A stretch of 64,000 nucleotides of DNA, from positions 4,393-68,392 of the forward strand of contig CBDUSE010000001.1 in NCBI GenBank assembly GCA_965369835.1, written 5' to 3'. The notes under the pieces are model-generated. The model did no database searches and was not told the DNA's origin. It saw nothing but the letters and a program-made list of their open reading frames with translations. The DNA comes from an uncultured bacterium. GTDB lineage: Bacteria; Auribacterota; JABMQX01; JAFGEW01. Below, one piece after another: positions 12,021 through 64,000 of this stretch (positions are counted from its first letter, which is position 1; each line of letters opens with the position of its first letter). A program made the translations under genes and the position numbers.

Positions 12021-12180
12021 CGTTGGGAGGCTCGGGTCCCCTGCTTCGGCGGAATGTCAGTTCGCAACGAGGGAGTGCGTCACGTGCTGCCCCGCCGGGC
12101 CTTGTCTCATCTCATGACATGAGGACAGGCCGCCACCCGTACCAGGCAGCGGCCCGCGGATAAGCGCGTCTCTACTGTTC

Positions 12181-16868: not shown

Positions 16869-16874
16869 GGGCCG

Positions 16875-17885: not shown

Positions 17886-17894
17886 GCAACGCGT

Positions 17895-19955: not shown

Positions 19956-20690
19956 ATGACCACGAAGCAGGAGCGTCTCATCGTTCTTGGACGTCTCTCT
20001 TCCGTGCTCGCCCACGAGATCCGAAATCCGCTGGCCGGCATTAGTGCGGCAATACAGGTGCTCGGCGGAAAGATTGCGGAAGCGGATCCGCGGAGGAAGT
20101 ACGTCGGCATGATCCTCAAGGAGGTCGAGCGCGTCAACGACATCGTGAAGAACCTGCTCGACTTCTCGCGCGAGGGCCGGGCGTACATGATGCCGGCGCG
20201 TGTCCGCACGCTCGTCGAGCATGCGCTCGAGCAGTTCGCCCGGCAGTGCGAGCACGCCGGCATCCATGTCGAGACCGATCACGACGACGACCTGCCCGTT
20301 GTCGTGTGCGACGTGGAGCAGATGGGGCGGGTCTTTCGCAATCTCATCGCGAACGCCGTTGACGCGATGCCCCGAGGCGGCACGCTGACGGTGCGGACCG
20401 CGCATAACGCGGCGACGGGGCAGGTCGCCGTCAGCTTCGAGGACACGGGCATCGGCACCGACGTAGCGGATCTGGGCGAGCTCTTCTCACCGTTCTACAC
20501 GACCAAGACGAAGGGGAACGGGCTTGGTCTGCCCGTGGCGCTCAAGTGCATCGAGGAACATGGGGGAACGATCACCGCGCAGCGCGGGGAGCCGTGCGGA
20601 TTGACGATGGTTGTCCAGTGGCCCGTCAAGCCACTCAACGAGGCGGGCACCCCGAACAATGCAGCACAGACGACGCACCTTATCGGCTAG
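19956..20690 (+). CDS. Cytoplasmic sensor histidine kinase core (HisKA + HATPase), FlgS-like
   Basis: H-box LAHEIRNPLAGI lies about 15 aa from the N-terminus. N, G1 and G2 boxes are present (NLIANAVDAM, DTGIG, GNGLGL). No TM or sensor domain. Confidence 0.8.
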   Translation: MTTKQERLIVLGRLSSVLAHEIRNPLAGISAAIQVLGGKIAEADPRRKYVGMILKEVERVNDIVKNLLDFSREGRAYMMPARVRTLVEHALEQFARQCEHAGIHVETDHDDDLPVVVCDVEQMGRVFRNLIANAVDAMPRGGTLTVRTAHNAATGQVAVSFEDTGIGTDVADLGELFSPFYTTKTKGNGLGLPVALKCIEEHGGTITAQRGEPCGLTMVVQWPVKPLNEAGTPNNAAQTTHLIG

Positions 20691-20702
20691 ACAGGGGAGA
20701 GT

Positions 20703-22067
20703 ATGGACACGTCTATTCTTATCGTTGATGATGAAGAGGCGATTCGCCTCTCGCTGACCGAGGCGCTCAGCGACGAGGGATATACGGTCATCGCGGCCGC
20801 CTCAGGCGAGGAGGCGATCGCCCTTGTGCGCCGTAGACGCCCGGACCTTATGTTGCTTGACATGAAGCTGCCGAAAGCGAGCGGCATGGAGGTGCTCAAG
20901 CAGGCGAAGAAGATCCAGAACGACATCGTGGTGATTATCATGACCGCGTTCGCCGACGTCGCCAGCGCGGTCAAGTGCATGAAGCGCGGCGCCTACGACT
21001 ACCTGAACAAGCCGTTCAGTCTCGACGCGCTCAAGCTCGTGGTCCGCAAGGCGCTCGAGACGCTCTCGCTCAAGAAGGAGCTCTCGATCGTGCGCGAGCG
21101 CGCGCAGCGCGATTTTGAGGCCGATTTTATCATCGGTGAGAGCTCGAAGATGCGTAAGGTCTACGAATACGTCAAGCGCGTGGCCCGCAGCAACTCCTCG
21201 ACGGTGCTCGTTCAGGGCGAGAGCGGCACGGGCAAGGAGCTCATCGCGCGGGCGATCCACTACTTGAGCTTTCGGCACGACAAGATGTTCGTTGACTTCA
21301 ACTGCACGGCCGTTCCGGAGGCGCTTGTGGAGAGCGAGCTCTTCGGGTTCGAGAAGGGCGCCTTCACGGATGCGAAGCACCAGAAGACGGGCTTGTTCGA
21401 ACTGGCGGACAAGGGCACGCTGTTCCTCGACGAGATTGGCGACATGAGCTATCACCTCCAGGCGAAGCTCTTGCGGGCGCTGCAGGAGCGTTCGTTCACC
21501 CGCGTCGGTGGCATCTCCAAGATCCACGTGGACATCCGCATCATCGCCTCGACGCACCGCGACCTGAAGGCCGCGATGGCCGCTGCGAAGTTCCGCGAGG
21601 ACCTCTACTACCGACTCAACGTGGTACCGATCTCGCTGCCGCCGCTTCGCGATCGCGGCCCGGACATCCTGCTACTGGCGAAGCACTTCATTGACCGCTT
21701 CAATCGCGAGTTCAAGAAGAACGTCTACAAGATGGCGCCCGAGACAGAGCAGCTCATGCTCGGGTACCATTGGCCGGGCAATGTGCGCGAGCTGCAGAAC
21801 ACCATCGAACGGGCCATCCTGCTCGAGTGTGACGACGTGCTCTTGCCTGAGCACCTGCTGTTCGCCGAAGCTGAGACCACGCCGGCACCGGAGAGCTCGC
21901 CCGTACCAAGGGCCACCGACATGACCCTCGACGATGTTGAGAAGGAGTACATCCTCCGTGTGATCGAGGCGGTCGGCTGGAACAAGAACCGCGCGGCGAA
22001 GAAGCTCGGCATTGATCGCACCACCCTCTATACTAAGATCAAGAAGTACAGTCTCGCGCGCACGTGA
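20703..22067 (+). CDS. Sigma54-dependent response regulator (NtrC family; REC + AAA+ sigma54-activator + Fis-type HTH), FlgR/FleR-like
   Basis: Receiver domain, GESGTGKE Walker A, the GAFTGA-type loop (EKGAFTDA), ESELFGFEKGAFT, and a C-terminal HTH (NKNRAAKKLGIDRTTLYTKI). Confidence 0.9.
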   Translation: MDTSILIVDDEEAIRLSLTEALSDEGYTVIAAASGEEAIALVRRRRPDLMLLDMKLPKASGMEVLKQAKKIQNDIVVIIMTAFADVASAVKCMKRGAYDYLNKPFSLDALKLVVRKALETLSLKKELSIVRERAQRDFEADFIIGESSKMRKVYEYVKRVARSNSSTVLVQGESGTGKELIARAIHYLSFRHDKMFVDFNCTAVPEALVESELFGFEKGAFTDAKHQKTGLFELADKGTLFLDEIGDMSYHLQAKLLRALQERSFTRVGGISKIHVDIRIIASTHRDLKAAMAAAKFREDLYYRLNVVPISLPPLRDRGPDILLLAKHFIDRFNREFKKNVYKMAPETEQLMLGYHWPGNVRELQNTIERAILLECDDVLLPEHLLFAEAETTPAPESSPVPRATDMTLDDVEKEYILRVIEAVGWNKNRAAKKLGIDRTTLYTKIKKYSLART

Positions 22068-27881: not shown

Positions 27882-29180
27882 ATGATGGAGAGCACCGTTG
27901 CGTCCGAACAGGCCACGGGTGAGGGCATGTTCGCTGACGCGCTCACGGAACATGGCGTAGGTGGGGCCGGTGATATCGAGCGCCTGGCCGAGGCGTTCGA
28001 GCGCTTCACGAGGAAAGCCGCGAAGCTCCGGGGCGCCTATAACAAGCTCAAGCGACACGTGGGAGCGGTCAACCGCGAGCTCGAGGAAAAGAACGTCGAG
28101 CTACGGCACAAGATCGAGGAGCTCGACTCGACCCGCACGTACCTGAATAACGTGCTCGAGAGCATGGGAAGCGGCGTGATCGCCGTTGATGCGCTCGGAC
28201 GGATCACCACATTCAACGCGGCGGCCGAGCAGATGACCGGCTACAGGCGCAACGAGGTGCTCGGGCGCCCCTACGGCGAGGTCTTCCCCGAGCGGGACGA
28301 CGGCCCGCCGGCGATCCTTCTGTCACTCGAGACGCACAGGCCCCACATCGTCAAGGAGCGCGCCCTGCACCGCCACGACGGTCGGGCCGTACCAGTCGGC
28401 GTGAGCAGCTCGCCGTTTCGCGACTCGAACGGCGCTCTCTCCGGCGCGCTCGAGATCTTCCACGATCTTACTGAGGTGAAGTTGCTCGAAGAGCGCGTGC
28501 GTTGCGCCGATCGGCTCGCTGCGCTCGGTCAGATGGCAGCGACGGTGGCGCACGAGATCCGCAACCCGCTCGGCGGCATCGAGGGGTTCGCGGCGCTGCT
28601 CGAGCGCGATCTGGCGGACCGGCCCGACAAGCGCGAGATGGCGAGCCAGATCGTCCAGGGCGCCCGGGCGCTCAACCGCATCGTTGCCTGCCTGCTTGAT
28701 TTCACGCGCCCGGTCGCGCTCAAGCTGCGCTGGGTGAGTCTGGGCGAGATTGCCGACGCGGCGCTCGCGGTCGTCGAGCAGGAGATGGGCGCGCAGGGCC
28801 CGCGGGTCACCATCGTTCGGGACTACGCCGAGGAGGACATGGCGATCGTTGACCCGGAACAGATGTACGGGGTGGTGCTCAACCTTGCGCGCAACGCGTG
28901 GCAAGCGATGCACGAGGACGGCGAGATCATCGTGAAAATCGGGAGCGACGAGAACACCGTGACGCTCAGCGTGCGCGACACCGGATGCGGCATGACCGAG
29001 GAGGTCCGTGCAAAGCTCTTCTCACCGTTCTTCACGACGAAAGAGACCGGCACGGGCCTGGGACTGAGCATCGTGCGCAAGATTGTGCTCGCGCACGGCG
29101 GCACCATCGAGGTAGAGAGCGCGCCGGGTGCGGGCACCACGTTCACCGTCAAGATCCTTCGGCGCCTGCGAGCGGCCTGA
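27882..29180 (+). CDS. PAS-domain sensor histidine kinase (FlgS/NtrB-like)
   Basis: PAS segment (GSGVIAVDALGRITTFNAAAEQMTGY), H-box VAHEIRNPLGGI, and an HATPase region (RNAWQAM, DTGCGM, GTGLGL). Confidence 0.85.
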   Translation: MMESTVASEQATGEGMFADALTEHGVGGAGDIERLAEAFERFTRKAAKLRGAYNKLKRHVGAVNRELEEKNVELRHKIEELDSTRTYLNNVLESMGSGVIAVDALGRITTFNAAAEQMTGYRRNEVLGRPYGEVFPERDDGPPAILLSLETHRPHIVKERALHRHDGRAVPVGVSSSPFRDSNGALSGALEIFHDLTEVKLLEERVRCADRLAALGQMAATVAHEIRNPLGGIEGFAALLERDLADRPDKREMASQIVQGARALNRIVACLLDFTRPVALKLRWVSLGEIADAALAVVEQEMGAQGPRVTIVRDYAEEDMAIVDPEQMYGVVLNLARNAWQAMHEDGEIIVKIGSDENTVTLSVRDTGCGMTEEVRAKLFSPFFTTKETGTGLGLSIVRKIVLAHGGTIEVESAPGAGTTFTVKILRRLRAA

Positions 29181-29237
29181 GCACGAGACAGCAGGGACAA
29201 CACCAGAGACCACTGGAACACAGAGAGAGGCAAGAGG

Positions 29238-30629
29238 ATGGCCATCCAACACGTCCTCGTCGTTGATGACGAGCCGCTGATCCGCAAGTTCCTCGTCGAG
29301 ACGCTGAAGCGAATGGGCTTTGCCGTCCAGGATGCGTCGGACGGCGCGCAGGCGCTGCGAAAGATCAAGTCCGAAACGTTCGACCTGATCTTTACCGATA
29401 TCAAGATGCCGAGCCTGAGCGGCATGGAGCTGCTGCGCAAGGTGCGCGAGGTGTCGCCCGAGTCGGTCATCGTGATGATGACCGCTTACGCGACCGTCGA
29501 AAGCGCGGTCGAGGCGATGAAGATGGGCGCCTTCGACTACATCATCAAGCCGTTCTCGCCCGACCAGATTGAGATGGTCACCCGTCGGGCGACCGAGCGG
29601 CAGAGCCTCATCGAGGAGAACCAGTACCTGCGCAGCGAGATCCTCAAGGAGTACGGGTTCGGCGAGATCATCGGCAACGCTCCGGTGATGCACAGCATCT
29701 TTGAGGTGATCAAGAAGGTGGCCAACAGCCGGGCCACCATGCTTGTGCAGGGCGAGAGCGGCACCGGCAAGGAGCTGGCCGCGCGAGCGATCCATTTCAG
29801 CAGCGTACGCTCGAACGCACCGTTCATCAAGGTCAATTGCGCCGCTCTGCCGGAGAACCTGCTCGAGAGCGAGCTGTTCGGCCACGAGAAGGGTGCGTTC
29901 ACGGGCGCTGTGACGCGCCGCTTGGGCCGCTTCGAGCTCGCGCACCGCGGGACCCTGTTGCTCGACGAGGTGAGCGAGATCCCGCTCGGGCTCCAGGCGA
30001 AGCTGCTCCGGGTGCTCCAGGAGCGCGAGTTCGAGCGCGTCGGTGGCACCCGGCCGGTCAAGGTTGACGTGCGCATCGTGGCGACGACGAACCGGAACCT
30101 CGATGAGGAGATCGAGGCGAAGCGGTTTCGCGAGGACCTGTTCTTCCGGCTCAACGTCATCCCGATCACGCTGCCGCCACTGCGTGAGCGAGACGGCGAC
30201 GTGCCGTTGCTCGCGCAGCATTTCGTTGATCGCTACTGCCGCGAGAACAACCGGTCGCATAAGCAGATCGTGCCCGAAGCGCTCGAGATGATGTGCCACT
30301 ACGCATGGCCGGGCAACGTGCGCGAGCTGCAGAACGTGATCGAGCGCGCGGTGGTGCTCGATGCCGACGAGGTGATCCGGCCCGAGCACCTCGCGCTTCG
30401 CCCGTCCAGTTCGAGCGAAAGCGACAGCGACGAGATCGTTGATGCGGTCGGCAGGACGGTAGCGGAGATGGAGCGCCGGCTGATTCTCAAGACACTCCAG
30501 GCGCTCGAAGGGAACCGCGGCAGGACGGCCGAGATGCTCCAGATCAGCGTGCGCACGTTGCGCAACAAGCTTAACCAATACCGGGTGCAGGGACAGTTCG
30601 CTGACTCGAAGCCGGCCTGTGCGTCATGA
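29238..30629 (+). CDS. Sigma54-dependent response regulator (NtrC family), second FlgR/FleR-like paralog
   Basis: REC domain, GESGTGKE, ESELFGHEKGAFTGA, and a C-terminal HTH (NRGRTAEMLQISVRTLRNKL). Confidence 0.9.
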   Translation: MAIQHVLVVDDEPLIRKFLVETLKRMGFAVQDASDGAQALRKIKSETFDLIFTDIKMPSLSGMELLRKVREVSPESVIVMMTAYATVESAVEAMKMGAFDYIIKPFSPDQIEMVTRRATERQSLIEENQYLRSEILKEYGFGEIIGNAPVMHSIFEVIKKVANSRATMLVQGESGTGKELAARAIHFSSVRSNAPFIKVNCAALPENLLESELFGHEKGAFTGAVTRRLGRFELAHRGTLLLDEVSEIPLGLQAKLLRVLQEREFERVGGTRPVKVDVRIVATTNRNLDEEIEAKRFREDLFFRLNVIPITLPPLRERDGDVPLLAQHFVDRYCRENNRSHKQIVPEALEMMCHYAWPGNVRELQNVIERAVVLDADEVIRPEHLALRPSSSSESDSDEIVDAVGRTVAEMERRLILKTLQALEGNRGRTAEMLQISVRTLRNKLNQYRVQGQFADSKPACAS

Positions 30630-44176: not shown

Positions 44177-44704
44177 ATGCCGGTCGAAAAGTTTTCCGAA
44201 GAGGGGGAAACCGCCCAGAGTGGGGCGGCGGAGGCGTCCTCCGATGAGGGAGTTCTCAACACCGGCGGCGGCCGCGCGTTGCTTGGGCGGCTCAAAGTCC
44301 CTGCCGGCGTCGGCGTTGCCCTGGCTCTTGTCGTCCTAGCATACTTCTTGCTCACTGGGCACTGGGGTCGGCCGAAGACCGGCTCGTCCGGAGGCGACGG
44401 CACGTTGGTGCTGCTGGAGCCACAGACGATCAGCCTTGCGGAGCCCGGCACACATCTCGAGGTACGCATCGTGCTCGAAGCGTCCTCAACCGAGTTCTCC
44501 GTGCTCTTGCGGCGGCGCACGGCGCAACTGGCCGACATCGCCATTACGGTCATCAGCACCAAGAAGATCGGCGAGATCGACTCCGAGCTCGAGCGCAACC
44601 GTCTGAAGCGGGAGCTGGCGGACGCGATCGGCCAGCGGCTGCGCTCGGATGATGCGCATATAACAAACGTGTACTTCACGCGTTTCTATTACAGGTCGAA
44701 GTGA
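44177..44704 (+). CDS. fliL: FliL-family flagellar basal-body-associated protein (paralog 1)
   Basis: Single TM helix plus a FliL-like C-terminal domain (HLEVRIVLEASS...RLKRELADAIGQRL...NVYFTRFYY). Confidence 0.55.
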   Translation: MPVEKFSEEGETAQSGAAEASSDEGVLNTGGGRALLGRLKVPAGVGVALALVVLAYFLLTGHWGRPKTGSSGGDGTLVLLEPQTISLAEPGTHLEVRIVLEASSTEFSVLLRRRTAQLADIAITVISTKKIGEIDSELERNRLKRELADAIGQRLRSDDAHITNVYFTRFYYRSK

Positions 44705-45240
44705 TGTGGAAGTCGGCGGACGGTGACAAGGACGCGGGGGGCGACGCCAAGGGTGCGGCCGCCGCCGCGTCGAAAGGCGCTGCGGACGAACCGGCCAAGG
44801 GCGGCCGCTCGCTTCTCGGCAAGAAGCTGATCGTGCTGCTCGTGGGGGGGCTCGTGCTCGCCGGGGGCGGCATCGGCGCCGCCAAGTTCCTTGGCCGCGG
44901 CGGCGGCGAGGAGAAGCCGGAGAAGAAGAAGAAGGTAGTGGCGCCGCTGACATACGAAGTTGCCGACCTCGTGGTCAACATCCTCGATACGCGCGACACG
45001 CGCGTGCTCCGCTTCGTGATCCACCTCGAGGTGGACAATCCTAAGGCGCTCGACGAGCTCAGGTTGCGCGAGGTGGTCTATCGGGACGAGATCCTCGAGA
45101 TTCTCCGGTCGAAAACGCTCGATGACCTCAAGTACCCGGGCGACAATGCGATCAAGCGCCAGATTCGTGATCGCCTGAACCGGATGATGGTCAATGGGAG
45201 CGTGGTCGAAGTGTACTTCAAGGAGTTCCTGATTCACTAG
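44701..45240 (+). CDS. fliL: FliL flagellar basal-body-associated protein (paralog 2, canonical)
   Basis: PLTYEVADLVVNILDTRDTRVLRFVIHLEVDNPKA...LRSKTLDDL...VVEVYFKEFLI. Confidence 0.8.
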   Translation: MMWKSADGDKDAGGDAKGAAAAASKGAADEPAKGGRSLLGKKLIVLLVGGLVLAGGGIGAAKFLGRGGGEEKPEKKKKVVAPLTYEVADLVVNILDTRDTRVLRFVIHLEVDNPKALDELRLREVVYRDEILEILRSKTLDDLKYPGDNAIKRQIRDRLNRMMVNGSVVEVYFKEFLIH

Positions 45241-54983: not shown

Positions 54984-55245
54984 ATTGGCGCTCGGCCTGG
55001 CCGTGATGGCGTTTGTGGTGGTGGCGGTCTCGTCGTCGTTGGCGGGGGCCTCGCCGATGAGCGTCATCTCGCGCGGGGTCGTCGCGTTCGTGGTCTTCGG
55101 GGTCTTCGGCCTCGTCGCGCTGCGCGGTGTGGTCTACAGCGTGATCAGCGATCTCGCCAGGCAGGCCGAGGAGAAGAGGCGCAAGGAGGAAGAAGAGAAG
55201 CAGGCCCAGAAGGAACAGGAGCAGAACTTCTCGCTCCCGGAGTAA
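54964..55245 (+). CDS. Small two-TM membrane protein with a Lys/Glu-rich C-terminal tail
   Basis: 93 aa ORF between flhG and fliA with two hydrophobic helices and an EEKRRKEEEEKQAQKEQEQ tail. Confidence 0.3.
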
Positions 55246-55270: not shown

Positions 55271-56080
55271 ATGAGCGACACCATCGAGACAGTGTGGCAG
55301 CAGTACCTCGCGGACCGCACTCACGCGGCCGCTAAGGACAAGCTCGTTCTCAACTACCTGCCGCTGGTCAAGTACGTGGCCGGGCGGCTCGCGATCACCC
55401 TGCCGTCCCATGTGGACATCAACGACCTGATTAGCTCGGGCGTGATTGGGCTGATCAGCGCCCTGGAGAATTTCGAACCGAAGTTCAAGACCAAGTTTGA
55501 GACCTACGCGATCATTCGCATCCGGGGCGCCATGCTCGATGAGCTCCGCTCGCTCGACTGGGTGCCGCGCTCGATGCGCGAGAAGTTCTGTGCGCTCCAG
55601 CGGGCGCACGTGAGCCTCGAGCAGGAGCTCGGCCGTCCCGCACGCGACGACGAGGTGGCGGCGAGGCTCAACATCGGCGTGAGCGATCTCGATGCCCTGA
55701 TGAATGAGGAGCGTTCGGTGGCGTTCCTCTCGCTCAACGAGCTGCTGAACCCCGACGACGGTGATCGTAAGGCGGTGAGCATGATTGACTCGGTCCACGA
55801 CGAGAACCAGCCGTCGCCGCTTACCGCGGCGGACACGAAGGAGAAGAGGGCGATCCTGGCGCAGGCGATCCAGGAGCTACCCGAGCAGGAGCGGATCGTC
55901 ATCGCGCTCTACTACTACGAACGGCTCATGCTCAAGGAGATCGGCGCGGTGCTCGGCATTTCCGAGTCTCGCGTCTCGCAGGTACACACCAAGGCATTGA
56001 CCCGGCTTGGCGGAAAACTACGGCGCTGCGATTCGCCCGTCCGAGCCCTGGCCCGTGCCGGCCACTCCGGCGACGAGTAG
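55271..56080 (+). CDS. fliA: Flagellar sigma factor sigma28 (FliA/SigD)
   Basis: Sigma70 regions 2, 3 and 4 are present (YLPLVKYVAGRL, region 4 ERIVIALYYYERLMLKEIGAVLGISESRVSQVHTKAL). Confidence 0.9.
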   Translation: MSDTIETVWQQYLADRTHAAAKDKLVLNYLPLVKYVAGRLAITLPSHVDINDLISSGVIGLISALENFEPKFKTKFETYAIIRIRGAMLDELRSLDWVPRSMREKFCALQRAHVSLEQELGRPARDDEVAARLNIGVSDLDALMNEERSVAFLSLNELLNPDDGDRKAVSMIDSVHDENQPSPLTAADTKEKRAILAQAIQELPEQERIVIALYYYERLMLKEIGAVLGISESRVSQVHTKALTRLGGKLRRCDSPVRALARAGHSGDE

Positions 56081-56128: not shown

Positions 56129-56449
56129 ATGGTCGAACCGGTCAACTACCAACACACGCTCGCGCGCACTCAGATCGCCGAACAGATGCAGGAGACGGCG
56201 AAGCAGCAGCACATCGGCGACGAGCAGGCGTTCGCCGACGAGCTGACCAAGCTCGAGAAGGCGCGTGAAAAGCAGGTCCAGCACACGGAGCAGGATCAGG
56301 AAGGCGTCAAGGTGCGCGAGGAGGAGCAGCAGAAAAAAGGTCACGAGGAAGGCAAGGAGCGAGGGGAACATGGACCTGAAAAGGAACCACATGCCCCACC
56401 CGACGAGATCACGGACGATCCAGACCATCACATTGACATCACCGTCTAG
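56129..56449 (+). CDS. Acidic, low-complexity small protein downstream of fliA
   Basis: ATG with a GAGGGGG SD. 106 aa, Glu/Lys/Gln-rich. No recognisable domain. Confidence 0.3.
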   Translation: MVEPVNYQHTLARTQIAEQMQETAKQQHIGDEQAFADELTKLEKAREKQVQHTEQDQEGVKVREEEQQKKGHEEGKERGEHGPEKEPHAPPDEITDDPDHHIDITV

Positions 56450-56485: not shown

Positions 56486-57196
56486 ATGAAACAACGAGCA
56501 TTCTGGATCGTTCTGATCGCCCTGGCATGCCTGCAGGCAGGCTGCGGGACGATGAGGAAGCGAGCGAGGCTGCACTTCGCGCCGCAGCATGCCATCACCA
56601 ACTGGTCGCGCGATCCCCGGTTCGAGCGGCTCGGCATCCGGCGCGTCGCCGTGCTGCCTTTTGTTGACCGGAGCCGGTACGCCGAGGCGTCCGCGCGCCT
56701 GACCGAGGCGTTCACGCTCGAGCTCAGGAAGACGAGGAAGTTCGACGTGATGGCGTGCCGGCGCGAGATGCCGCTGGCGCACCTGGCCGCCTCGCGCTCG
56801 AAGTTCGATGCGGTCGAGGCGCGGCTGCTCGGCGAGACACTCAATGTGGACGCCGTGATCCTGGGCGAAATCGTTGAGTACGAGCCGTACAGGCCGATCG
56901 CTATCGGCCTGCGCGTCGTCATGATTGACGCGCGCAGCGGGCGCGTGGTGTGGACCGTGGACGAGATGCTCGACACCGGCGAGCTCGCCGTGGCGAACCT
57001 GGCGCGGCAGTACTACTACGATGTGGTGGACCCGAAGGCGTCGGAGTTCCTCGACGACCGCGTGCTGCTCAGCATGCGGACGTTCGCGCGTTGTGTCTGC
57101 TACCACTTAGTCAGAACGCTCGACCGTCCGCTCTCGGTGAAGGTCGAGGCCCCGGCGAGCGCTGGGGCGACCGGAGCTGTTTCAGGCGGTCTCTGA
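56486..57196 (+). CDS. Outer-membrane-type lipoprotein (FlgP/LpoB/CsgG-N-like fold), possibly flagellum-associated
   Basis: Lipobox LQAGC, then the VAVLPFVDRS...LTEAFTLEL...VDAVILGEIVEYEP pattern. Confidence 0.4.
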   Translation: MKQRAFWIVLIALACLQAGCGTMRKRARLHFAPQHAITNWSRDPRFERLGIRRVAVLPFVDRSRYAEASARLTEAFTLELRKTRKFDVMACRREMPLAHLAASRSKFDAVEARLLGETLNVDAVILGEIVEYEPYRPIAIGLRVVMIDARSGRVVWTVDEMLDTGELAVANLARQYYYDVVDPKASEFLDDRVLLSMRTFARCVCYHLVRTLDRPLSVKVEAPASAGATGAVSGGL

Positions 57197-59069
57197 CCAC
57201 CTCGGCGTGTGGCCCGTCGGGCGCGGTGCGAAGATAGTTTGCGTAGTCCGCCTTGGCTTTGTCGAAGACGGCCGCTCGGTCGTAGGCAAGGCCGCGGCGA
57301 TAGAAGTTTTCGGGATTCTCGGGCTCGAGCTTGATGGCTTCGGCGTACGCCTCGATGGCGCGGCGGTACTCCTTCTTCGCCATGTACGCGGCGCCGAGGT
57401 TCTTCCAGGCTGGAAGGTATCGAGCGTTGAGCTCCAGGGCTCTTTGGTAAGACGTGATTGCCGTGTCCGTGCGGCCGGCCATAAGCAGGGCGTTCGCGAG
57501 GCTGTTACGTGCCGCAGCGGTCTCGGAGAGCTTGACCGCCTCGACGAGCTGGGCCACCGCGTCCTTGTAGCGTTCCTGGTCGTAGCAGAGCAGGCCGTAG
57601 TTGTAGCGCGCGTCAAACAGCTTGGGGTCTTTGGCGATAGCCGTCTCGAAGACCTTGGCCGCCGCGTCGAGCTTCTTGGCGTGGTAGAGCGCGGTGGCGA
57701 GGTTCGAGCGAAACAGCGCGTCGTCGGGCGCGTGCTTGATGGCGAGCTTGTACGCCTCGATCGCATCGGCGAGCCGGCCCTGCATGAAGTGCAGGTTGCC
57801 GAGGTTGTTGTGGGCGCGTGCGTCGTCGGGGCTGTGGCGGATCGCTTCGGCGAGCCGTTCGAGTGCTTCGTCGTAGCGGCCCGCCTCGAGCAGCGCCGTC
57901 CCGAGGTTGTAGAGAGCGCCCGCGTAGGCGGGGTTGACCTCGAGTGCGCGCCCGTAGGTCTCGATCGCGCGGTCGGTGTCGTGCTGCCTCAGGTAGACGT
58001 TGCCGAGGTTCGTATAGGCCGTCGCCGAGTCCGGTCGCATCATGAGCACCTGCTTGTAGGCCGCCTCGGCTTCGGTGAACTGGCCGAGTTGCTCGTTGAG
58101 GTAGCCGATGTGGAAGCGGACGTCCGCGGCCTCGGGCCGGAGCGAGGCGAGGCGCTCGAGCGCGCGTACGGCGTAGTCGTAATCGCCGGCGAGCTCGCAG
58201 GCGTGGCCGAGGCGCGAGTAGCCGAAGGTGGCGTCGGGCCGGAGCTCGACGACCTTGGCGAACGCCTCGATCGCCTCACGGTATCGGCCCTCGCTCTCGC
58301 GCACGCAGCCGAGGTTGTGCCAGCCGAGCGGCGAGTTCGGGCGCAGCGTTGTGACCTTGGCGAAAGCGCGCACCGCCTCGTCGAGCTTGCCCTGCTGGAA
58401 GGCGAGGCAGCCGAGGTTGTTATGCGGCGAGGCGAACCATGGCCGCTCGTCTATCGCCTGGCGGTACCGGAGCGCTGCCTTGTCGGTCTTACCGTCGAGG
58501 GCAAGGAGGCAACCAAGGTTGTAGAGCGCGACGGCGTCGTGCGGGTGCTTTGCGACGAAACTCTCGAGGAGGGCGAGTGCGTCGGCGCGCTTGTCCTGCG
58601 CGTTGAGCACGATGGCGAGGCTGTTGGCCGAGAGCGAGTGGTCCGGATCAATCTCGAGGCCCTTGCGGTACCAGGCCGTGGCGGTGTTCGAGTCGCCGGT
58701 GGCGAAGGCGATTTTGCCCTCGAGGTACGCCTGGTTGGCGGTGCCCTCGATGAGCCCGTCGAGCTTCTCGGCGAGCTGCTTGGCCTTGTAGAGATCGGCC
58801 GACCGTTCCTCGAGGAGGTATCGCTCGAGGTGCGAACGTGCGAGCAGCAGCAGCGCATCGGCGTTCTCCGGTTCGGCCTCGACGAGCTTGTCGAGCACGG
58901 CGATCGCTTCGGCGTACTCGTCGAGCTTGAAGTGCTCGACGGCCTGCTCGTGAAGTTCGGCGGCGCCGGTGGTGCCATCGTCCGCCGCGTTCGCGGGCGG
59001 CGTGAGCACAACGGCGACCAAAGAGATGACCGCAGCCAGGACAACTGTAAGGAGATCTTTAAGGTTCAT
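57111..59069 (-). CDS. Secreted multi-TPR repeat protein
   Basis: Signal peptide MNLKDLLTVVLAAVISLVAVVLTPPANA, followed by about 15 TPR units. An alternative start at 59084 is possible. Confidence 0.7.
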   Translation of the reverse strand: MNLKDLLTVVLAAVISLVAVVLTPPANAADDGTTGAAELHEQAVEHFKLDEYAEAIAVLDKLVEAEPENADALLLLARSHLERYLLEERSADLYKAKQLAEKLDGLIEGTANQAYLEGKIAFATGDSNTATAWYRKGLEIDPDHSLSANSLAIVLNAQDKRADALALLESFVAKHPHDAVALYNLGCLLALDGKTDKAALRYRQAIDERPWFASPHNNLGCLAFQQGKLDEAVRAFAKVTTLRPNSPLGWHNLGCVRESEGRYREAIEAFAKVVELRPDATFGYSRLGHACELAGDYDYAVRALERLASLRPEAADVRFHIGYLNEQLGQFTEAEAAYKQVLMMRPDSATAYTNLGNVYLRQHDTDRAIETYGRALEVNPAYAGALYNLGTALLEAGRYDEALERLAEAIRHSPDDARAHNNLGNLHFMQGRLADAIEAYKLAIKHAPDDALFRSNLATALYHAKKLDAAAKVFETAIAKDPKLFDARYNYGLLCYDQERYKDAVAQLVEAVKLSETAAARNSLANALLMAGRTDTAITSYQRALELNARYLPAWKNLGAAYMAKKEYRRAIEAYAEAIKLEPENPENFYRRGLAYDRAAVFDKAKADYANYLRTAPDGPHAEVVRDRLKQLRSPQRSPGPRPSPRADGRAF

Positions 59070-59212
59070 CGGTCCGGTCCTCATTGAATTGCTGACCGAT
59101 GTGCGCGGCGAAAACCGTTCCTCGACGAGAAACGTGCGCCGCATCCGGTACTGCTAGCACATGGCAGGCGCCGAGTCAAACCGAATGTCAGCGCGGCGAG
59201 AGGAGAGTCGCA

Positions 59213-60331
59213 GTGAAATCGTACGACATTGTCTGTATTGCACAGAGTTCGTGGAACGGCGTGTGGGCGCGACCGCAGCAGCTCATGAGCCGCTTCGCGC
59301 GCGACCACCGGGTGCTCTTCGTGCGACCGATCTCGGTCGCCCACCTCTTGAGCAACCCGAGCGAGCGTAACTGGAAGGCGTTCCGGTGGGTCGAGAGCAA
59401 TCTGTGGGTCTATTCACCGCTCGTGCTTCCGTTTGGGCGGGCGGTGCCCGGTGTGCGCCTGATCAACGAGGCGCGGATCCGCCGGCTTGTGCGCCGCACG
59501 GTCCGCCGGCTCGGCTTCCGGGAGTTCGTGCTCTGGTTCTACGCGCCGATGTCGGAGTACCTCGTCGGGCGTCTCGGTGAGACCGCCGTCGTGTATGACT
59601 GCACCGACGCCTGGGAGCAGTTCGAGAAGACGCCGCAGTTCTGCATCACGCGCGACCGCGCGCTCTCGAGCGAGGCGGACGTGCTCTTTGCGGGCACGCA
59701 CAAGGTGCACGAGACACGCCGCGAGTGGAACCCGAACTGCCACCTGTTTACCTGCGGCGTTGACTACGGCCACTTCGCTGAGCCGCCGCCGGCGCCGCCC
59801 GAGGACATGGCGGACATTCCGCGTCCGATCATCGGCTACGCCGGGCTTGTTGACGAGGCGCGCATGGACTGCAAGCTGCTCGAGCGCATGGCGTGCGAAC
59901 ATCCCGAGTGGTCCATCGTGCTCGTGGGCCCCGTGCAGGAGGATCTGCTGATCCGCACGCTGCGTCACCCGAACATCCGTTTCCTCGGGCTGAAGCCGTA
60001 CGCCGAGCTGCCTCGCTACGTCGCCGCCTTCGACGTGGCGATCGTGCCCTACAAGGTGGACGAGGCGACGCACAGCATCAATCCGACGAAGCTGCTCGAG
60101 TACATGGCGGCCGGCAAGCCGATCGTCTCGAGTGCGCTCGACGAGGTGAAGAGCTGCTACCTCGACCGCCTCTCGATCGCCGAGGGCCGCGACGACTTTA
60201 TCCGCAGCATCGAGCGGCTGCTCGGCGGCGAGGCGACGCTCCCGATCGAGGCGAACCAGGCGCTGGCGGCCGAGCAGTCGTGGGAGCGCGTCACGACCCA
60301 AATGCTGGACCTTGTGGAGGCGACGTTATGA
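59213..60331 (+). CDS. Glycosyltransferase family 4 (GT-B, GT1 clan)
   Basis: GTG start with an AGGAGAG SD. C-terminal GT4 motifs (FLGLKPYAELPRYVAAFDVAIVPY, NPTKLLEYMAAGKPIV). Confidence 0.75.
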   Translation: MKSYDIVCIAQSSWNGVWARPQQLMSRFARDHRVLFVRPISVAHLLSNPSERNWKAFRWVESNLWVYSPLVLPFGRAVPGVRLINEARIRRLVRRTVRRLGFREFVLWFYAPMSEYLVGRLGETAVVYDCTDAWEQFEKTPQFCITRDRALSSEADVLFAGTHKVHETRREWNPNCHLFTCGVDYGHFAEPPPAPPEDMADIPRPIIGYAGLVDEARMDCKLLERMACEHPEWSIVLVGPVQEDLLIRTLRHPNIRFLGLKPYAELPRYVAAFDVAIVPYKVDEATHSINPTKLLEYMAAGKPIVSSALDEVKSCYLDRLSIAEGRDDFIRSIERLLGGEATLPIEANQALAAEQSWERVTTQMLDLVEATL

Positions 60332-61320
60332 ACATGCCGTTTGCCCAGATCGAACCGACCACGGTGTGCAACCTGCGCTGCGCGATGTGCGAGCGCGACC
60401 GCCTCGACTCGGTCGGCCACATGCGGCTTGATCAGTTCGAGCATATCCTCGACGAGCTTGACGGCCTCAGCGCGGTCAAGCTCCAGGGGCTCGGCGAACC
60501 GATGCTCAATCCAGACTTCGTCCCGATGATGCAGGCGCTGAGGGCGCGCGGCATCCGTGCTTACTCGGCGCTCAACGCGACGCTGATCAACGCGGACAAC
60601 GCCGAGTCGCTCGCGTCGGTGGCCGACCGGATCGAGCTCTCGCTCGACAGCGCCGACCCGGCCCAGTTCAGCGCGATCCGGCGCGGCGCGTGCCTGGACG
60701 ACGTGCTGGACCGGATTCGCGTGCTCGTCGAGGCGCGCAACCGCCGGGGCCAGTTCCTCGAGTTGAGCGCCAACGCCGTCGTACACACCGCCGACCGGGG
60801 CGCGCTCAAGGCGCTTTTCGAGCTGATAAGTCGCCTGGGGCTCGACCGGCTCAACCTCAACGTGGTGCAGTTCTGGGACATCGGCGAGGGCGACGAGCCG
60901 GCCCCGAAAGGCGGCGCCGTGCTCGATGCCGAGGACCTCGACCGGATTCGGGCCGAGGTGGACTCGCTCTCATGGGACTGGAGCCTGCCTGCACGGATGA
61001 TGGGCCCCACGGAGGGCTACGAGAACTGCTCGTGGTATCGCGGCGGCATCTACGTCTCGTGGGAGGGCTACGTCACTCCGTGCTGCCAGCGACCTGACCC
61101 GCGCACGATCAACTTCGGCAACATCCTCGAGCAGTCTTTTGGGGCGATCTGGAACAGCGACGCGTACCGGCGCTTCCGCGAGGCGCTTGCCGCGGGCCGA
61201 CCGCCGGAGACGTGCCGCACCTGCACGATGTACTACACGCACGGCGAGGGAAAATGGACATCATCTACCTCTCGGGCTACGACCTCCGGGGCTTTGTCCG
61301 GTTCCGACCCCAACACCTGA
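60328..61320 (+). CDS. Radical SAM enzyme with a C-terminal SPASM/twitch domain
   Basis: CNLRCAMC (CX3CX2C) near the N-terminus, and C-terminal Cys clusters (CSWYRG...TPCCQR...CRTCTMYY). The ATGA start overlaps the GT4 stop. Confidence 0.75.
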   Translation: MNMPFAQIEPTTVCNLRCAMCERDRLDSVGHMRLDQFEHILDELDGLSAVKLQGLGEPMLNPDFVPMMQALRARGIRAYSALNATLINADNAESLASVADRIELSLDSADPAQFSAIRRGACLDDVLDRIRVLVEARNRRGQFLELSANAVVHTADRGALKALFELISRLGLDRLNLNVVQFWDIGEGDEPAPKGGAVLDAEDLDRIRAEVDSLSWDWSLPARMMGPTEGYENCSWYRGGIYVSWEGYVTPCCQRPDPRTINFGNILEQSFGAIWNSDAYRRFREALAAGRPPETCRTCTMYYTHGEGKWTSSTSRATTSGALSGSDPNT

Positions 61321-62435
61321 TGACGCGGCTGGCGCAGCGCCATCGGGTCCTCTACGTCGAGCCGACGCGCGCGGGCAAGTGGCGGCGGCCGTGGCGTTGG
61401 GGCCGCCTGCGCCGCGAGAGCGCCGGCCTGCTGATTCTTGAGCCGCCCGTGCTGCCCGGTTTGCGGTGGAGCCGTGCGGTCAGGGCGCTCAACGAAGCGC
61501 TGCTGCACCGGCGGATCAAGACTGTCATGCACCGCCTCAAGTTCCGTGACGCCGTGACCATTATCGGCACGCCTTTTGCAGCAAAAATTGCCGGTTCCCT
61601 GGGGGAGCGCCTCGTCGTCTACGACTGCAATGATGACTGGGCCGCGATCCCCAGGCTGCCCTCGGCGTACCTGCGGCGGCAGGAGGAGCAGCTTGCCCGG
61701 CGGGCCGACCTCGTGTTCGCCACGAGCCGGCGGCTCTTCGAGCGGTTGGCGCGCCTCAACGAGCGGACCCGGCTCCTACCGTCCGGCGTGGACGTGGAGC
61801 ACTTCGCTCGCGCCGGCGAGCCGGAGGAAGTGCCCGAGGAAATGCGCGGACTCGCGTCGCCGGTGATCGGCTCGATCGGGTCGGTCAACGCGACCAAGGA
61901 CGACCTCGACCTGCTCGAGGCGGTCGCCGCGCGGCGGCCAGCGTGGTCGTTCGTGTTCGTCGGGCCGGTCATGGCGGACGTGGACCTCGGGAAGTACCCG
62001 GCGCTACGCCAATGCGCGCGGTTCCTCGGCTCGCGACCATACGAGGCATTGCCGGCGTATGTGCGGGCGATGGACGTGTGCGTGCTCGCGTACAAGCGCA
62101 ACGCGTTCACCGCGTCGGCGAACCCGACGAAGGTGTTCGAGTACCTGAGCGCGGGCAAGCCGGTCGTAGCCACGCCGCTCGAGGACCTGGCGGAACTCGA
62201 CCGGTTCGTGGCGCTGGCCCGTGATACCGATGAGTTCGTCACCGCGATCGAGGCCGCGCTCGAGCGGGGTGATGACGACGCGATACGCAAGGCGCGCATC
62301 GAGCGCAGCCGGCAGCGGTCCTGGGAGACGATCGTGAGCGCCTTCGAGGCGCAGATTGAGCACCACCTGATGGAGAGAGGCAATGTATCGAATCGCGCTG
62401 TGCATCATTTCATACAACAGGCGGCCGTACACTGA
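61254..62435 (+). CDS. Glycosyltransferase family 4, paralog of the gene at 59213
   Basis: The N-terminus (DIIYLSGYDLRGFVRFRPQHLMTRLAQRHRVLYVEP) aligns with that of the first GT4, and the same C-terminal NPTKVFEYLSAGKPVV motif is present. It overlaps the three-prime end of the rSAM gene by 67 nt. Confidence 0.7.
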   Translation: MDIIYLSGYDLRGFVRFRPQHLMTRLAQRHRVLYVEPTRAGKWRRPWRWGRLRRESAGLLILEPPVLPGLRWSRAVRALNEALLHRRIKTVMHRLKFRDAVTIIGTPFAAKIAGSLGERLVVYDCNDDWAAIPRLPSAYLRRQEEQLARRADLVFATSRRLFERLARLNERTRLLPSGVDVEHFARAGEPEEVPEEMRGLASPVIGSIGSVNATKDDLDLLEAVAARRPAWSFVFVGPVMADVDLGKYPALRQCARFLGSRPYEALPAYVRAMDVCVLAYKRNAFTASANPTKVFEYLSAGKPVVATPLEDLAELDRFVALARDTDEFVTAIEAALERGDDDAIRKARIERSRQRSWETIVSAFEAQIEHHLMERGNVSNRAVHHFIQQAAVH

Positions 62436-63144
62436 GCGGACGCTCACGCCGCTGCTCGAGCAGCTCGAGAGCCCTGAACACGACCTGCACATCTTCATCT
62501 ATGACAACGCCAGCAGCGACTCGACGCCCGAGTACCTTCGCGAGATCGAGGCCCGTCACGAGAAGCTCACCGTGGTGTTCGGCGAGGAAAACATCGGGGT
62601 CACGAACGCCACGAAGCACCTGCTCGAGGACCTCGTTTACGACCACGGGTTTGACTTCATCGCCAAGAACGACGACGACGAGCTGCTGCCCGAGGACTGG
62701 ATGGGCGTGTGCGACTACTGGAGCCGGTTCGAGGCGGCGGGCGGCATCGTCCTCGGCTTCAAGCGGCAGGGGCTCGAGGACTATTTTGCGGGCCTCGAGT
62801 GGGTCAGTCGCCGGCGCGAGAACCTGACGCCGATCGTGGCGGGCCCCTATATCGGCTTCCTGAGCTACATCGTCCCCGGCTTCCAGATGACGACCGAGGC
62901 GTGGTGGCGCCGGATCGTGCCGCACCTGAGCGACTTCGGCCAGTCGCTCGGCGGCTGGGACCCCTCGATGGCGATGACCGTGCGCGACGTGCTCGGCAAG
63001 CAGTGTCTCGTCATCTTCAACCGTCTCTCGATCCACTTCCAGCGCGACGAGGATTACCCCGAATACTCGGCCTCGAAGAAGGAGCAGGTGGACAACGTCC
63101 GCGAGGCGGTCTTTGACCTGCGTCGTCAGGGCGCGCTCAAGTGA
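62383..63144 (+). CDS. Glycosyltransferase family 2 (GT-A fold)
   Basis: IALCIISYNRRPYTERTL...IFIYDNASSD...DDDE is a GT2 signature (DXD-like). Confidence 0.7.
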   Translation: MYRIALCIISYNRRPYTERTLTPLLEQLESPEHDLHIFIYDNASSDSTPEYLREIEARHEKLTVVFGEENIGVTNATKHLLEDLVYDHGFDFIAKNDDDELLPEDWMGVCDYWSRFEAAGGIVLGFKRQGLEDYFAGLEWVSRRRENLTPIVAGPYIGFLSYIVPGFQMTTEAWWRRIVPHLSDFGQSLGGWDPSMAMTVRDVLGKQCLVIFNRLSIHFQRDEDYPEYSASKKEQVDNVREAVFDLRRQGALK

Positions 63145-63175
63145 GCAAGGGCGCCCGAGCGAGGAGAACGACACG

Positions 63176-64000
63176 ATGGACAGGCGCTGCTTCTGCGACG
63201 AGTACATCCCCGGGGCGAAGTTCCTCGAGCTGACCGAGCGGCCGGTCCGGACACGCGAGGGCTATCTCTCGACGCTGGAGGCCTGCTACAATTTCAGGGC
63301 GGTCAGGCCGTTCCCGCTCAAGGTGATGGTCGAGTCGTCGAACCGCTGCATGCTTCACTGCTCGATGTGCCCGCGCGACCGCATGACGCGGGCGCAGGGC
63401 GACATGCCGTTCGAGTTGTTTGCGAAAGTGATTGACGAGGCCGCCGCCGGTGGGCTATATCACCTTTCGATGCACCAGCACGGCGAGCCGCTGATGAACG
63501 AGCGGCTGCCCGAGATGGTCCAAGCCGCCAAGACCCGCGGCATCCCCGTTGTCAATCTGACCACGAATGGGATTCTCCTGGACGAAACCGCGTCGCGCGC
63601 GCTCATCGAGGCGCGGCTCGACACGCTCGTCGTCTCGTTCGACGGCATCACGCGGGACGCCTACACGTTGCTGCGGGGCGTCGAGCGGTTCTACGACCGC
63701 GTGCGGGACAACATGCTTCGCTTCGTGCGGTTGCGGCGCGCCTACGGTTTCTCGAAGCCGTTCTTCCGCATCCACGCGCTGCGGCCGCCGGGCGTGACCG
63801 ACGAGGAGGTCGAAGCGTTCCGCGCCGAGTGGGACGGCGTGGCGGACGACGTCGGCATCGGCGAGATCGCCTCGTACGGCGAAGGCAACGAGATGTTCCA
63901 CCACGAGCGCGGTGTATCGGTGGCGCGAGTGCCGTGCCGCCACCTGTGGCAGCAGCTCATCGTGCTGCGCTCGGGTGATGTGGTCCCGTGCTGTGTGGAC
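63176..64000 (+). CDS. Second radical SAM/SPASM-domain enzyme (partial; runs off the window end). Not in the ORF track because it has no stop codon.
   Basis: CMLHCSMCPRD (CX3CX2C), then a radical-SAM core (GEPLMNERLPEMV, NLTTNG). The C-terminal PCRHLWQQLIVLRSGDVVPCCVD begins a SPASM domain. Confidence 0.7.
   Translation, partial: MDRRCFCDEYIPGAKFLELTERPVRTREGYLSTLEACYNFRAVRPFPLKVMVESSNRCMLHCSMCPRDRMTRAQGDMPFELFAKVIDEAAAGGLYHLSMHQHGEPLMNERLPEMVQAAKTRGIPVVNLTTNGILLDETASRALIEARLDTLVVSFDGITRDAYTLLRGVERFYDRVRDNMLRFVRLRRAYGFSKPFFRIHALRPPGVTDEEVEAFRAEWDGVADDVGIGEIASYGEGNEMFHHERGVSVARVPCRHLWQQLIVLRSGDVVPCCVD

Follow-up and report, generated by a model that had tools for sequence, protein, structure and literature searches.

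Gene organization of the block

The DNA under study is a stretch of 64,000 nucleotides (hereafter, the window) from contig CBDUSE010000001.1 of an uncultured bacterium of the phylum Auribacterota, and the subject is a block of five plus-strand genes that starts at position 59213 and runs to the window end. The genes were located using a listing of open reading frames (ORFs) together with direct reading of positions 58950–64000. Their order is GT-A, rSAM1, GT-B, GT2, rSAM2, where GT denotes a glycosyltransferase and rSAM a radical S-adenosylmethionine (SAM) protein; GT-A and GT-B are gene names, to be distinguished from the folds so called. Related loci are designated by L numbers.

GT-A (59213–60331) has a GTG start codon preceded by the ribosome-binding site GAGAGGAGAG, and it encodes a soluble, TuaH-like protein of 372 amino acids (aa) of the GT4 type (GT-B fold; Glyco_trans_1_4, E = 3.6e-11). 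rSAM1 (60328–61320; 330 aa) is a radical SAM protein with a truncated, “twitch”-like SPASM domain at its C-terminus (Radical_SAM, E = 3e-15; SPASM, E = 4e-16). The product of GT-B (61254–62435; 393 aa; Glyco_trans_1_4, E = 4e-13) is a paralog of GT-A; its start was set by N-terminal homology to GT-A and is the same as the NCBI gene call in L002. GT2 (62383–63144; 253 aa; Glycos_transf_2, E = 2.5e-12) is a small, soluble family-2 glycosyltransferase. rSAM2 (63176–64000; Radical_SAM, E = 1.5e-15), a second twitch-type radical SAM protein, is cut by the window end; the complete protein has 328 aa in the near-identical contig L001 (12849–13835). The Pfam domain scores of the block proteins exceeded the curated cutoffs, except for the SPASM match of rSAM2, which is truncated with the gene. 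No transmembrane segment was found in any of the seven island proteins, GT2 included, and an Rfam scan of the window returned no matches.

An earlier note on this DNA, made from the letters alone, had described a translationally coupled series (GT4, rSAM, GT4, GT2, rSAM) with an ATGA overlap and no precursor-peptide ORF. All five genes are there, the ATGA overlap of GT-A with rSAM1 is at 60328–60331, and the remaining junctions are as tight, with an overlap of 67 nt at rSAM1/GT-B, one of 53 nt at GT-B/GT2, and a gap of 31 nt at GT2/rSAM2. With such overlaps and no gap wider than 31 nt, the block contains no precursor-peptide ORF.

The upstream border of the island is fliA (sigma-28; 55271–56080, plus strand; Sigma70_r2/r3/r4), whose synteny is conserved. 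It is preceded by a flagellar gene cluster (30751–55245, plus strand; Pfam annotations) that extends from flgB to flhG and ends with an 86-aa membrane protein. The sequence past the window end was read from L001 and from the relatives L002/L097, L009, L010, and L015. Following rSAM2 are a CTP_transf_3 cytidylyltransferase and a NeuB+SAF synthase, i.e. a CMP-activating enzyme and a nonulosonic-acid synthase within the flagellar cluster. Next come a D-mannonate-oxidoreductase-like short-chain dehydrogenase/reductase (SDR), a zinc-dependent alcohol dehydrogenase (Zn-ADH), UxaE, KduI, an HDOD protein, flgM, and two 273-aa flagellins, and beyond the flagellins are flgF, flgG, flgA, flgH, flgI, flgJ, flgN, and flgK. 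The island had been described as lying beside the flagellar regulon; flagellar genes are indeed directly upstream, but the block is embedded in the cluster, between fliA and flgM/flagellin, rather than merely beside it. In L097, flgM and the two 273-aa flagellin genes are located within about 5 kb of NeuB. The L097 flagellins are short, have a Ser/Thr-rich center, and contain no cysteine; glycosylated Caulobacter flagellins are likewise short and Ser/Thr-rich in the center. The extension of the sequence past 64000, which the earlier note had proposed as a way to find a precursor peptide or flagellin genes, thus yielded the latter (in L097) and not the former.

Conservation and optional modules

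The same block was found between fliA and flgM in the window's clade (L001, L002, L009, L010, L015) and in the distant loci L004 and L095. The order in L004 (56% G+C) is fliPQR-flhBAFG-fliA-small ORF-lipoprotein-GT-A-rSAM1-GT-B-cytidylyltransferase-CgeB-like GT-NeuB-KduI-flgM, and its island proteins are, in gene order, 51, 39, 54, 55, and 59% identical to those of the window. In L095 (50% G+C), the order is fliA-small ORF-lipoprotein-GT-A-GT-B-cytidylyltransferase-NeuB, with neither an rSAM gene nor a remnant of one. GT2 and rSAM2 are jointly missing from L004, L095, L008, and L015; only a remnant of rSAM2 (70–87 aa) is present at the deletion site in L008 (2771–3031) and L015 (8035–8244). 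The genes kept throughout, which form the core, are those for GT-A, GT-B, the cytidylyltransferase, and the NeuB-type synthase. Between the two GT4 genes, rSAM1 is inserted optionally, and GT2 with rSAM2 makes up another optional module, whose two genes come and go jointly.

GT-B is 36% identical to GT-A over the full length, including the N-terminus (E = 4e-66). Both have separate orthologs in L004 and L095 (47–54% identity, with GT-B entries of 54% in L004 and 43% in L095), with cross-matches of 32–37%. Because GT-A and GT-B each keep their own orthologs across lineages, the duplication that gave rise to them is ancient, not a recent local event. The earlier note had correctly called the two genes GT4 paralogs; its proposal of a duplication in situ does not agree with the orthologs in lineages of 50% and 56% G+C.

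The best named NCBIfam match of both proteins was TuaH (NF047676; 104 and 106 bits over ~280 residues). An identity as TuaH orthologs was rejected, as the equivalog cutoff is 550. Also rejected was the assignment of GT-A as a sialyltransferase-like enzyme of the GT-B fold; it resembles GT4 hexosyltransferases. TPR repeats were not found in GT-A, GT-B, or their listed homologs. No flippase, polymerase, exporter, priming (phosphoglyco)transferase, chain-length regulator, or oligosaccharyltransferase (Wzx, Wzy, PGT, OTase domains) was listed in any of the island loci. With soluble enzymes and no export genes listed, glycosylation of a secreted protein within the cytoplasm fits better than the synthesis of a lipid-linked polysaccharide.

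One further transferase was observed in L004 (13471–14472), where the cytidylyltransferase and NeuB genes flank a CgeB-like GT (DUF3880 + Glyco_trans_1_2) that has no counterpart in the window and is a candidate for the transfer of the nonulosonic acid.

Nonulosonic-acid genes

A second sugar cluster (14632–19786, all plus strand) lies across the flagellar genes from the island and has a histidine kinase/sigma-54 activator pair as its immediate downstream neighbor. It encodes a PseG-like nucleotide-sugar hydrolase (14632–15654; NCBIfam PseG, 146 bits, cutoff 153.6), an ATP-grasp ligase (15651–16868; Pfam ATP-grasp, weak generic NCBIfam matches only), a LegB-like NAD-dependent 4,6-dehydratase (16875–17885; TIGR04180, 438 bits, cutoff 475), a sugar-1-phosphate nucleotidyltransferase in a PtmE/LegX-like position (17895–18608; Pfam NTP_transferase, mannose-1-P guanylyltransferase-like, 182 bits), and a PseC/LegC-like aminotransferase (18605–19786; PseC, 342 bits, cutoff 423; LegC, 248 bits, cutoff 420). 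The NeuB-type synthase scored 366 bits against an NCBIfam cutoff of 400. A PtmE/LegX-like nucleotidyltransferase has been described as a marker of the legionaminic-acid pathway (bioRxiv 10.1101/2022.03.25.485807). The two sub-clusters, inclusive of NeuB and the cytidylyltransferase, form a complete-looking pathway to a CMP-activated nine-carbon sugar of the legionaminic/pseudaminic type. The 14632–19786 cluster has no N-acetyltransferase gene; the ATP-grasp ligase may be the N-acylating enzyme that replaces it, perhaps using an amino or organic acid.

Two features of the adjoining genes were noted. Hexuronate-type genes (SDR, Zn-ADH, UxaE, KduI) are located between NeuB and flgM in L001 (16505–20993) and L097 (7466–10822), and KduI is present in L004 (15531–16325). 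Because the KduI-like isomerase adjoins NeuB even in the distant L004, it may serve the glycan pathway and not catabolism. The cytidylyltransferase (L001 13863–15044) comprises a catalytic domain of ~250 aa and an acidic, low-complexity tail of ~140 aa rich in E, A, and P. The length of the tail varies by lineage: the whole protein is 261 residues long in L095, against 428 in L004.

The radical SAM proteins

Both proteins carry the CX3CX2C motif of the SAM [4Fe-4S] cluster (C14/C18/C21 in rSAM1), which by motif places them in the radical SAM superfamily. They are a mere 26% identical to one another, and the motif is preceded by 13 residues in rSAM1, which has no N-terminal extension, and by 57 in rSAM2. 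In alignments of rSAM1 with 32 homologs, five C-terminal cysteines are kept (C234, C252, C253, C296, C299). They form the pattern CX12GX4CC ... CX2C, and the protein ends about 30 aa past the CX2C. The second half of the SPASM domain (CX5CX3C ... C) is missing from these alignments. Among 136 single-domain representatives of the family, 130 have CX9-16GX4C + CX2C, and none has CX2CX5CX3C. The seven or eight cysteines that define the SPASM subfamily (CX9-15GX4C ... CX2CX5CX3C ... C) are therefore not all there; Pfam PF13186 still matches these proteins because it covers the shared first half of SPASM. The earlier note had started from SPASM domains of the peptide-maturase type. That premise has to be given up, as the domain is truncated and twitch-like, as in BtrN and SpeY, with five conserved cysteines.

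The twitch pattern (C ... C, then CX2C) is present in both rSAMs. The twitch domain of BtrN binds one auxiliary cluster, and each rSAM is predicted by motif to bind the SAM cluster and one auxiliary [4Fe-4S] cluster of the twitch type. For the rSAM2 C-terminus the best match is the twitch domain of BtrN (E = 7e-10), ahead of Tes and DesII. The only PDB sequence match of rSAM1 was 7wzv, the twitch sugar dehydrogenase SpeY.

Classification of the two proteins, another step that the earlier note had suggested, placed them near the cutoff of no NCBIfam family, and a known non-glycan family, which that note had named as grounds for abandoning its idea, does not apply. Their top matches were TIGR04317 (tungsten-oxidoreductase maturase) and TIGR04311 (Geobacter metalloenzyme maturase), with E values of 1e-27 to 1e-30 and scores of ~100 bits against cutoffs of 380–400. 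Scores were 34–44 bits for MftC (TIGR03962; cutoff 265), 51–56 for PqqE (381), 31–51 for NirJ/AhbD (500 or more), and 38–46 for spiro-SPASM (TIGR04321; 250). Cognate mycofactocin, PQQ, or heme d1/b genes were not present nearby. Anaerobic sulfatase-maturating enzymes (anSMEs) have three [4Fe-4S] clusters and a sulfatase client; here the SPASM domain is truncated, and no sulfatase gene is a neighbor. No island protein has an RRE (RiPP recognition element)/PqqD Pfam domain, where RiPP stands for ribosomally synthesized and post-translationally modified peptide.

The wider rSAM1 family

A profile search over 1.84 billion cluster representatives returned 2774 proteins of the rSAM1 family at E ≤ 1e-30, a number that rises to 32464 with a threshold of E ≤ 1e-10; they are mostly of 310–370 aa. 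Orthologs sharing 75% identity or more are rare and occur solely in one clade of uncultured Verrucomicrobiota metagenome-assembled genomes, in which the analysis also placed the window's source. More distant homologs are found in several glycan loci. L012 (36% identity) has the order GT4-SDR-HAD-GT9-carbamoyltransferase-GT2-rSAM-GT9-GT1; L096 has GT2-ORF-rSAM/SPASM-ATP-grasp, near two GT4 genes; and L011, from an omnitrophotan (31% identity), includes a polysaccharide pyruvyl transferase, a B12-rSAM, another rSAM/SPASM protein, and a GT2-rSAM fusion. BLAST aligned the rSAM part of this fusion with neither rSAM1 nor rSAM2, and the use of the fusion as a “Rosetta stone” was rejected; it shows only that GT2-rSAM coupling exists in general.

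A census of neighbors was taken over 80 metagenome loci, 44 of which had usable flanks. The 96 operonic neighbors in these 44 loci included 24 GT2 enzymes, 10 carbamoyltransferases, 5 UDP-galactopyranose mutases (Glf), 4 GT1 enzymes, 3 RmlC, 2 RmlD, and 2 Wzx, and a GT2 gene was directly adjacent to the rSAM1 homolog in 18 of the census loci. Five of seven minor clades had adjoining glycan genes (Wzx; RmlD + Glf; Wza + GT4; a nucleotidyltransferase; and GT2, respectively).

Two fusion proteins join the family to enzymes of glycan synthesis. In P0103, a GT1/GT4 domain is attached to the C-terminal side of an rSAM domain (30% identity to rSAM1, E = 6e-39). In P0085, a cytidylyltransferase-like domain (27% identity to the island cytidylyltransferase, E = 1e-7) precedes an rSAM domain (31% identity to rSAM1, E = 1e-47), and the spiro-SPASM model matches the protein at 96 bits across the N-terminal domain and the rSAM core. 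The neighborhood comparison that the earlier note had called for thus finds rSAM1 homologs recurring in glycan loci and in fusions to glycan enzymes.

Tandem arrays of two to four rSAM/SPASM-like units related to rSAM1 were also encountered (P0089, with 1927 aa, P0130, P0160, P0117, and P0141), and one of these giants has an N-terminal B12-binding rSAM as well.

Interpretation

The five genes probably constitute the variable section of an island that glycosylates a component of the flagellum, most likely flagellin, that is situated between fliA and flgM, and in which the rSAMs tailor a sugar. The precursor of a nine-carbon sugar would be provided by the LegB/aminotransferase/nucleotidyltransferase/ATP-grasp/PseG-like cluster across the flagellar genes. 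Because the enzymes have no membrane segments and the locus has no flippase, polymerase, priming transferase, or oligosaccharyltransferase, we infer that the glycan would be assembled on the flagellins themselves, which are short and Ser/Thr-rich, before these leave the cytoplasm. GT-A and GT-B would build the conserved part of the glycan; rSAM1 would be the partner of GT-A/GT-B, and rSAM2 that of GT2 in a separate add-on module.

The rSAMs, which are oxygen-sensitive enzymes, would use a 5'-deoxyadenosyl radical to abstract hydrogen from a sugar, with the auxiliary cluster acting as an electron acceptor or a structural element. The substrate could be the nucleotide-activated donor of the neighboring transferase or a sugar residue after its attachment. 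The most likely reaction, by analogy with BtrN, SpeY, DesII, and related enzymes, is an epimerization, a dehydration, or an oxidation that yields a keto sugar without the need for oxygen. The nucleotidyltransferase-like fusion and the RmlD, Glf, and nucleotidyltransferase neighbors lean towards action at the level of the nucleotide sugar; the rSAM-GT4 fusion is compatible with either the donor or the attached sugar as the substrate. Radical chemistry on a sugar or glycan was also the preferred idea of the earlier note, and it fits the nonulosonic-acid flanks, the glycan loci of the family, and the fusions.

Several observations weigh against this reading. GT-A and GT-B look like ordinary GT4 enzymes that use nucleoside-diphosphate hexoses, and they resemble neither Maf (GT-A fold) nor FlmG (TPR + GT-B). 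No Maf (PF01973) or TPR-GT fusion was found in the window, L001, L002, L004, L095, or L097; a transferase for the nine-carbon sugar could be encoded elsewhere in the genome. The flagellin genes come from a 78%-identical relative (L097), not from the window's own contig, and the NCBIfam matches of the sugar-pathway enzymes all fall below the curated cutoffs. As 33 of the 44 census loci belong to one clade (rSAM identity of at least 50%), the count of 24 GT2 enzymes among 96 neighbors overstates the independence of the cases. One homolog (L005, 32% identity) is found in an unrelated, non-glycan setting. Finally, a fold search scored SuiB, SkfB, and anSME as high as BlsE and DesII; since both kinds score alike, in this search and in the PDB sequence searches, these searches cannot separate peptide-acting from sugar-acting rSAMs.

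Of the other explanations considered, the best survivor, though unlikely, is that the locus makes a surface polysaccharide, a decoration of lipopolysaccharide (LPS), or a general protein glycan, and that its flagellar placement is a historical accident. Capsule and O-antigen loci typically carry GT4, GT2, NeuB, and cytidylyltransferase genes, the GTs here resemble TuaH, and no flagellin-specific transferase was recognized; related rSAMs occur in loci resembling those for the LPS core and for exopolysaccharide (EPS), and hexuronate-metabolism genes are inserted in the same stretch. The placement between fliA and flgM, however, is kept in three lineages that differ in G+C content (50–66%) and whose proteins are 39–59% identical. 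In L004 and L095, moreover, GT-A follows the fliA and lipoprotein genes on the same strand with gaps of 0–64 nt, the enzymes are all soluble, and the genes for flippase, polymerase, exporter, priming transferase, and chain-length regulator were not seen in any of the island loci.

It is slightly less likely still that the rSAMs act on flagellin or another flagellar protein, through oxidation or cross-linking of Ser, Thr, or Cys in the manner of anSMEs and sactisynthases, either creating the attachment site for the GTs or acting independently of them. No RRE/PqqD domain or gene is present, and rSAM1 is without an N-terminal extension; the relatives in LPS-core-like and polysaccharide loci have no identified candidate protein substrate, and the family includes fusions with a GT4 and with a cytidylyltransferase-like domain. 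Thioether chemistry is excluded by the cysteine-free flagellins of L097.

A glycosylated RiPP or RiPP-derived cofactor (mycofactocin- or glycocin-like) with its precursor encoded outside the window, which the earlier note had offered as an alternative, is very improbable. SPASM-related rSAMs are best known as peptide maturases, GT2 adjoins an rSAM as in mft operons, and 3 kb upstream is a conserved small ORF (56129–56449) whose C-terminal motif is invariant. Against this, the overlapping genes leave no space for a hidden peptide gene, the auxiliary domain is twitch-like, RRE/PqqD domains are lacking, and the mycofactocin, PQQ, and sactipeptide NCBIfam models all score far below cutoff. The gene after rSAM2 encodes the cytidylyltransferase, and the sequence past the window (L001, L097) continues with NeuB, sugar-acid enzymes, flgM, and flagellins, with no precursor, protease, RRE, or transporter. 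A precursor peptide was not found in the intergenic spaces, among the small ORFs after flhG and fliA, or in the sequence beyond the window. The 106-aa ORF at 56129–56449 was rejected as a precursor: it has no cysteine, two or three genes lie between it and the rSAM, and it is present in L095, which has no rSAM.

That the rSAMs are maturases of a cofactor or metalloenzyme unrelated to the surrounding GTs is scarcely credible: TIGR04317 and TIGR04311 are the top matches, but at about a quarter of their cutoffs, no oxidoreductase, PQQ, heme, or molybdopterin gene is in the neighborhood, and the rSAM genes are translationally coupled to GT genes and belong to a family with a glycan-related context.

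Neighboring genes

Two genes separate fliA from the divergent promoter region upstream of GT-A on the plus strand. The first (56129–56449) encodes the small acidic protein of 106 aa discussed above. It ends in the motif DDxxHxIDIxA and resembles the YjfB-type “putative motility protein”, but it has no Pfam match. Counterparts are present in L002 (5701–6015), L004 (8013–8204), and L095 (8856–9212), in which the N-terminus is conserved and the C-terminal DDxxH(H/E)ID(I/L) is invariant. The second (56486–57196) encodes a lipoprotein of 236 aa with the lipobox LQAGC, whose position between fliA and GT-A is kept in L002, L004 (29%), L009, L010, and L095 (35%, with a weak TolB_N match).

A periplasmic TPR protein is encoded on the minus strand (57111–59144; TPR Pfam matches), with its start at 59069 (ENA call) or 59144 (longest ORF). 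As the earlier note had reported, it is divergent from the block and secreted: it has a Sec-type signal peptide that ends in ANA (maximum KD19, 2.65). The gene is outside the conserved core and is missing from the same position in L004 and L095. The TPR/GT-A divergent promoter region contains a conserved non-coding block, TTCCTCGACGAGAAA ... GCTAGCACA ... GCCGAGTCAAACCGAATGT (59070–59212), that is shared with L002, L009, L010, and L015. A search for sigma-28 and sigma-54 promoters upstream of GT-A found this conserved block (GCTAGCACA...GCCGAGTCAAAC) and no convincing consensus match.

Sigma-54-type motifs were recognized by eye in L097 only (11700–12560), upstream of flgM (GGCAC-N5-TTGCA) and of the first flagellin gene (TGGCAT-N5-TTGCT). 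The window encodes two sigma-54 activator response regulators with kinases (19956–22067 and 27882–30629). Together, the activators and motifs suggest a sigma-54-driven flagellar cascade. The 86-aa membrane protein between flhG and fliA (54985–55245) has a Lys/Glu-rich tail, and genes of similar size (92–101 aa) occupy its position in L002, L004, and L095. Also observed in the window were two tandem fliL genes (175 and 178 aa; 44177–45240) and an ORF of 528 aa on the minus strand (7858–9447) with a weak match, below the cutoff, to PMT_2 (GT-C, ArnT-like; E = 6e-5).

Relation to known systems

The flagellin glycosylation islands of Campylobacter, Helicobacter, and Aeromonas (Maf) and of Caulobacter and Brevundimonas (FlmG) likewise have NeuB, CMP-activating, and dehydratase/aminotransferase genes among flagellar genes, and their transferases are likewise soluble and cytoplasmic. 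The 273-aa flagellins here are short, as in Caulobacter, and a PtmE/LegX-like nucleotidyltransferase is next to LegB, as in legionaminic-acid pathways. The present island differs from the Maf and FlmG islands in having two TPR-free GT4 paralogs and a GT2, with neither MAF_flag10 nor a TPR-GT-B FlmG found, an ATP-grasp ligase where an N-acetyltransferase is expected, and two radical SAM genes. Only two transferase types, Maf and FlmG, have been described for flagellin glycosylation with nonulosonic acids (bioRxiv 10.1101/2022.03.25.485807). Our literature search found no precedent for radical SAM genes in flagellin glycosylation.

BtrN (2-deoxy-scyllo-inosamine dehydrogenase), SpeY (7wzv), BlsE, and DesII are 15–22% identical to the rSAMs of the island. 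They are antibiotic-pathway enzymes that act on small glycosides or nucleotide sugars, and they do not belong to protein- or cell-surface-glycan loci; the rSAMs here also differ from this group in an extra conserved cysteine beside the second ligand (CC; C252-C253 in rSAM1). To our knowledge, sugar-acting radical SAM enzymes have so far come from antibiotic pathways. The mycofactocin operon resembles the island in combining a SPASM-related rSAM (MftC) with a GT2 (MftF); it differs in that MftC has a full, two-cluster SPASM domain and that MftA, MftB (RRE), MftD, and MftE are not present here. In P0085, which matches the spiro-SPASM model (TIGR04321), the cytidylyltransferase-like and rSAM activities are joined; here, the pair is found as separate genes, and all scores were below the cutoff of 250. 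TuaH, the teichuronic acid GT of Bacillus subtilis, shares the GT-B fold with GT-A and GT-B, but no other tua genes are present, and the context is flagellar. The capsule locus of Campylobacter jejuni HS:19 has annotated rSAM genes (CjjRM3420_1441 and CjjRM3420_1449) beside GT genes (PMC8743553), the closest parallel that turned up in the literature. These genes are uncharacterized and known by annotation only; their likeness to rSAM1 and rSAM2 is one of locus type.

The earlier note held that the architecture was not that of a characterized pathway, and no paper describing such a system was found. It had missed that the island is of a known kind, a flagellin glycosylation island with nonulosonic-acid genes, and that the rSAM genes are optional. 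What was not found described is the form without Maf and FlmG, the GT4 pair, the ATP-grasp ligase in the sugar pathway, and, most notably, the two twitch rSAM modules.

We offer it as a tentative suggestion, plausible and short of probable, that the island represents a third type of flagellin glycosylation, which would use plain GT4 transferases and modify its sugar by radical SAM chemistry; this would be the first radical SAM step in the biosynthesis of a protein glycan, and the rSAM1 family would be one that tailors surface glycans. Flagellin glycosylation controls filament assembly, motility, and immune recognition, and an island without Maf and FlmG in a poorly known phylum points to further glycosylation machinery. 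The natural variants of the island (rSAM1 alone; rSAM1 with GT2 and rSAM2; no rSAM) make the question directly testable by comparison. If the suggestion is true, rSAM1 would offer a first point of entry into an unnamed twitch family of very large size (thousands of clusters at 50% identity), and this family would be a new source of unusual sugars (keto, deoxy, epimerized, or branched) in anaerobes. The larger prize is the family itself, unstudied and glycan-associated, whose members recur in LPS, EPS, and flagellar glycan loci.

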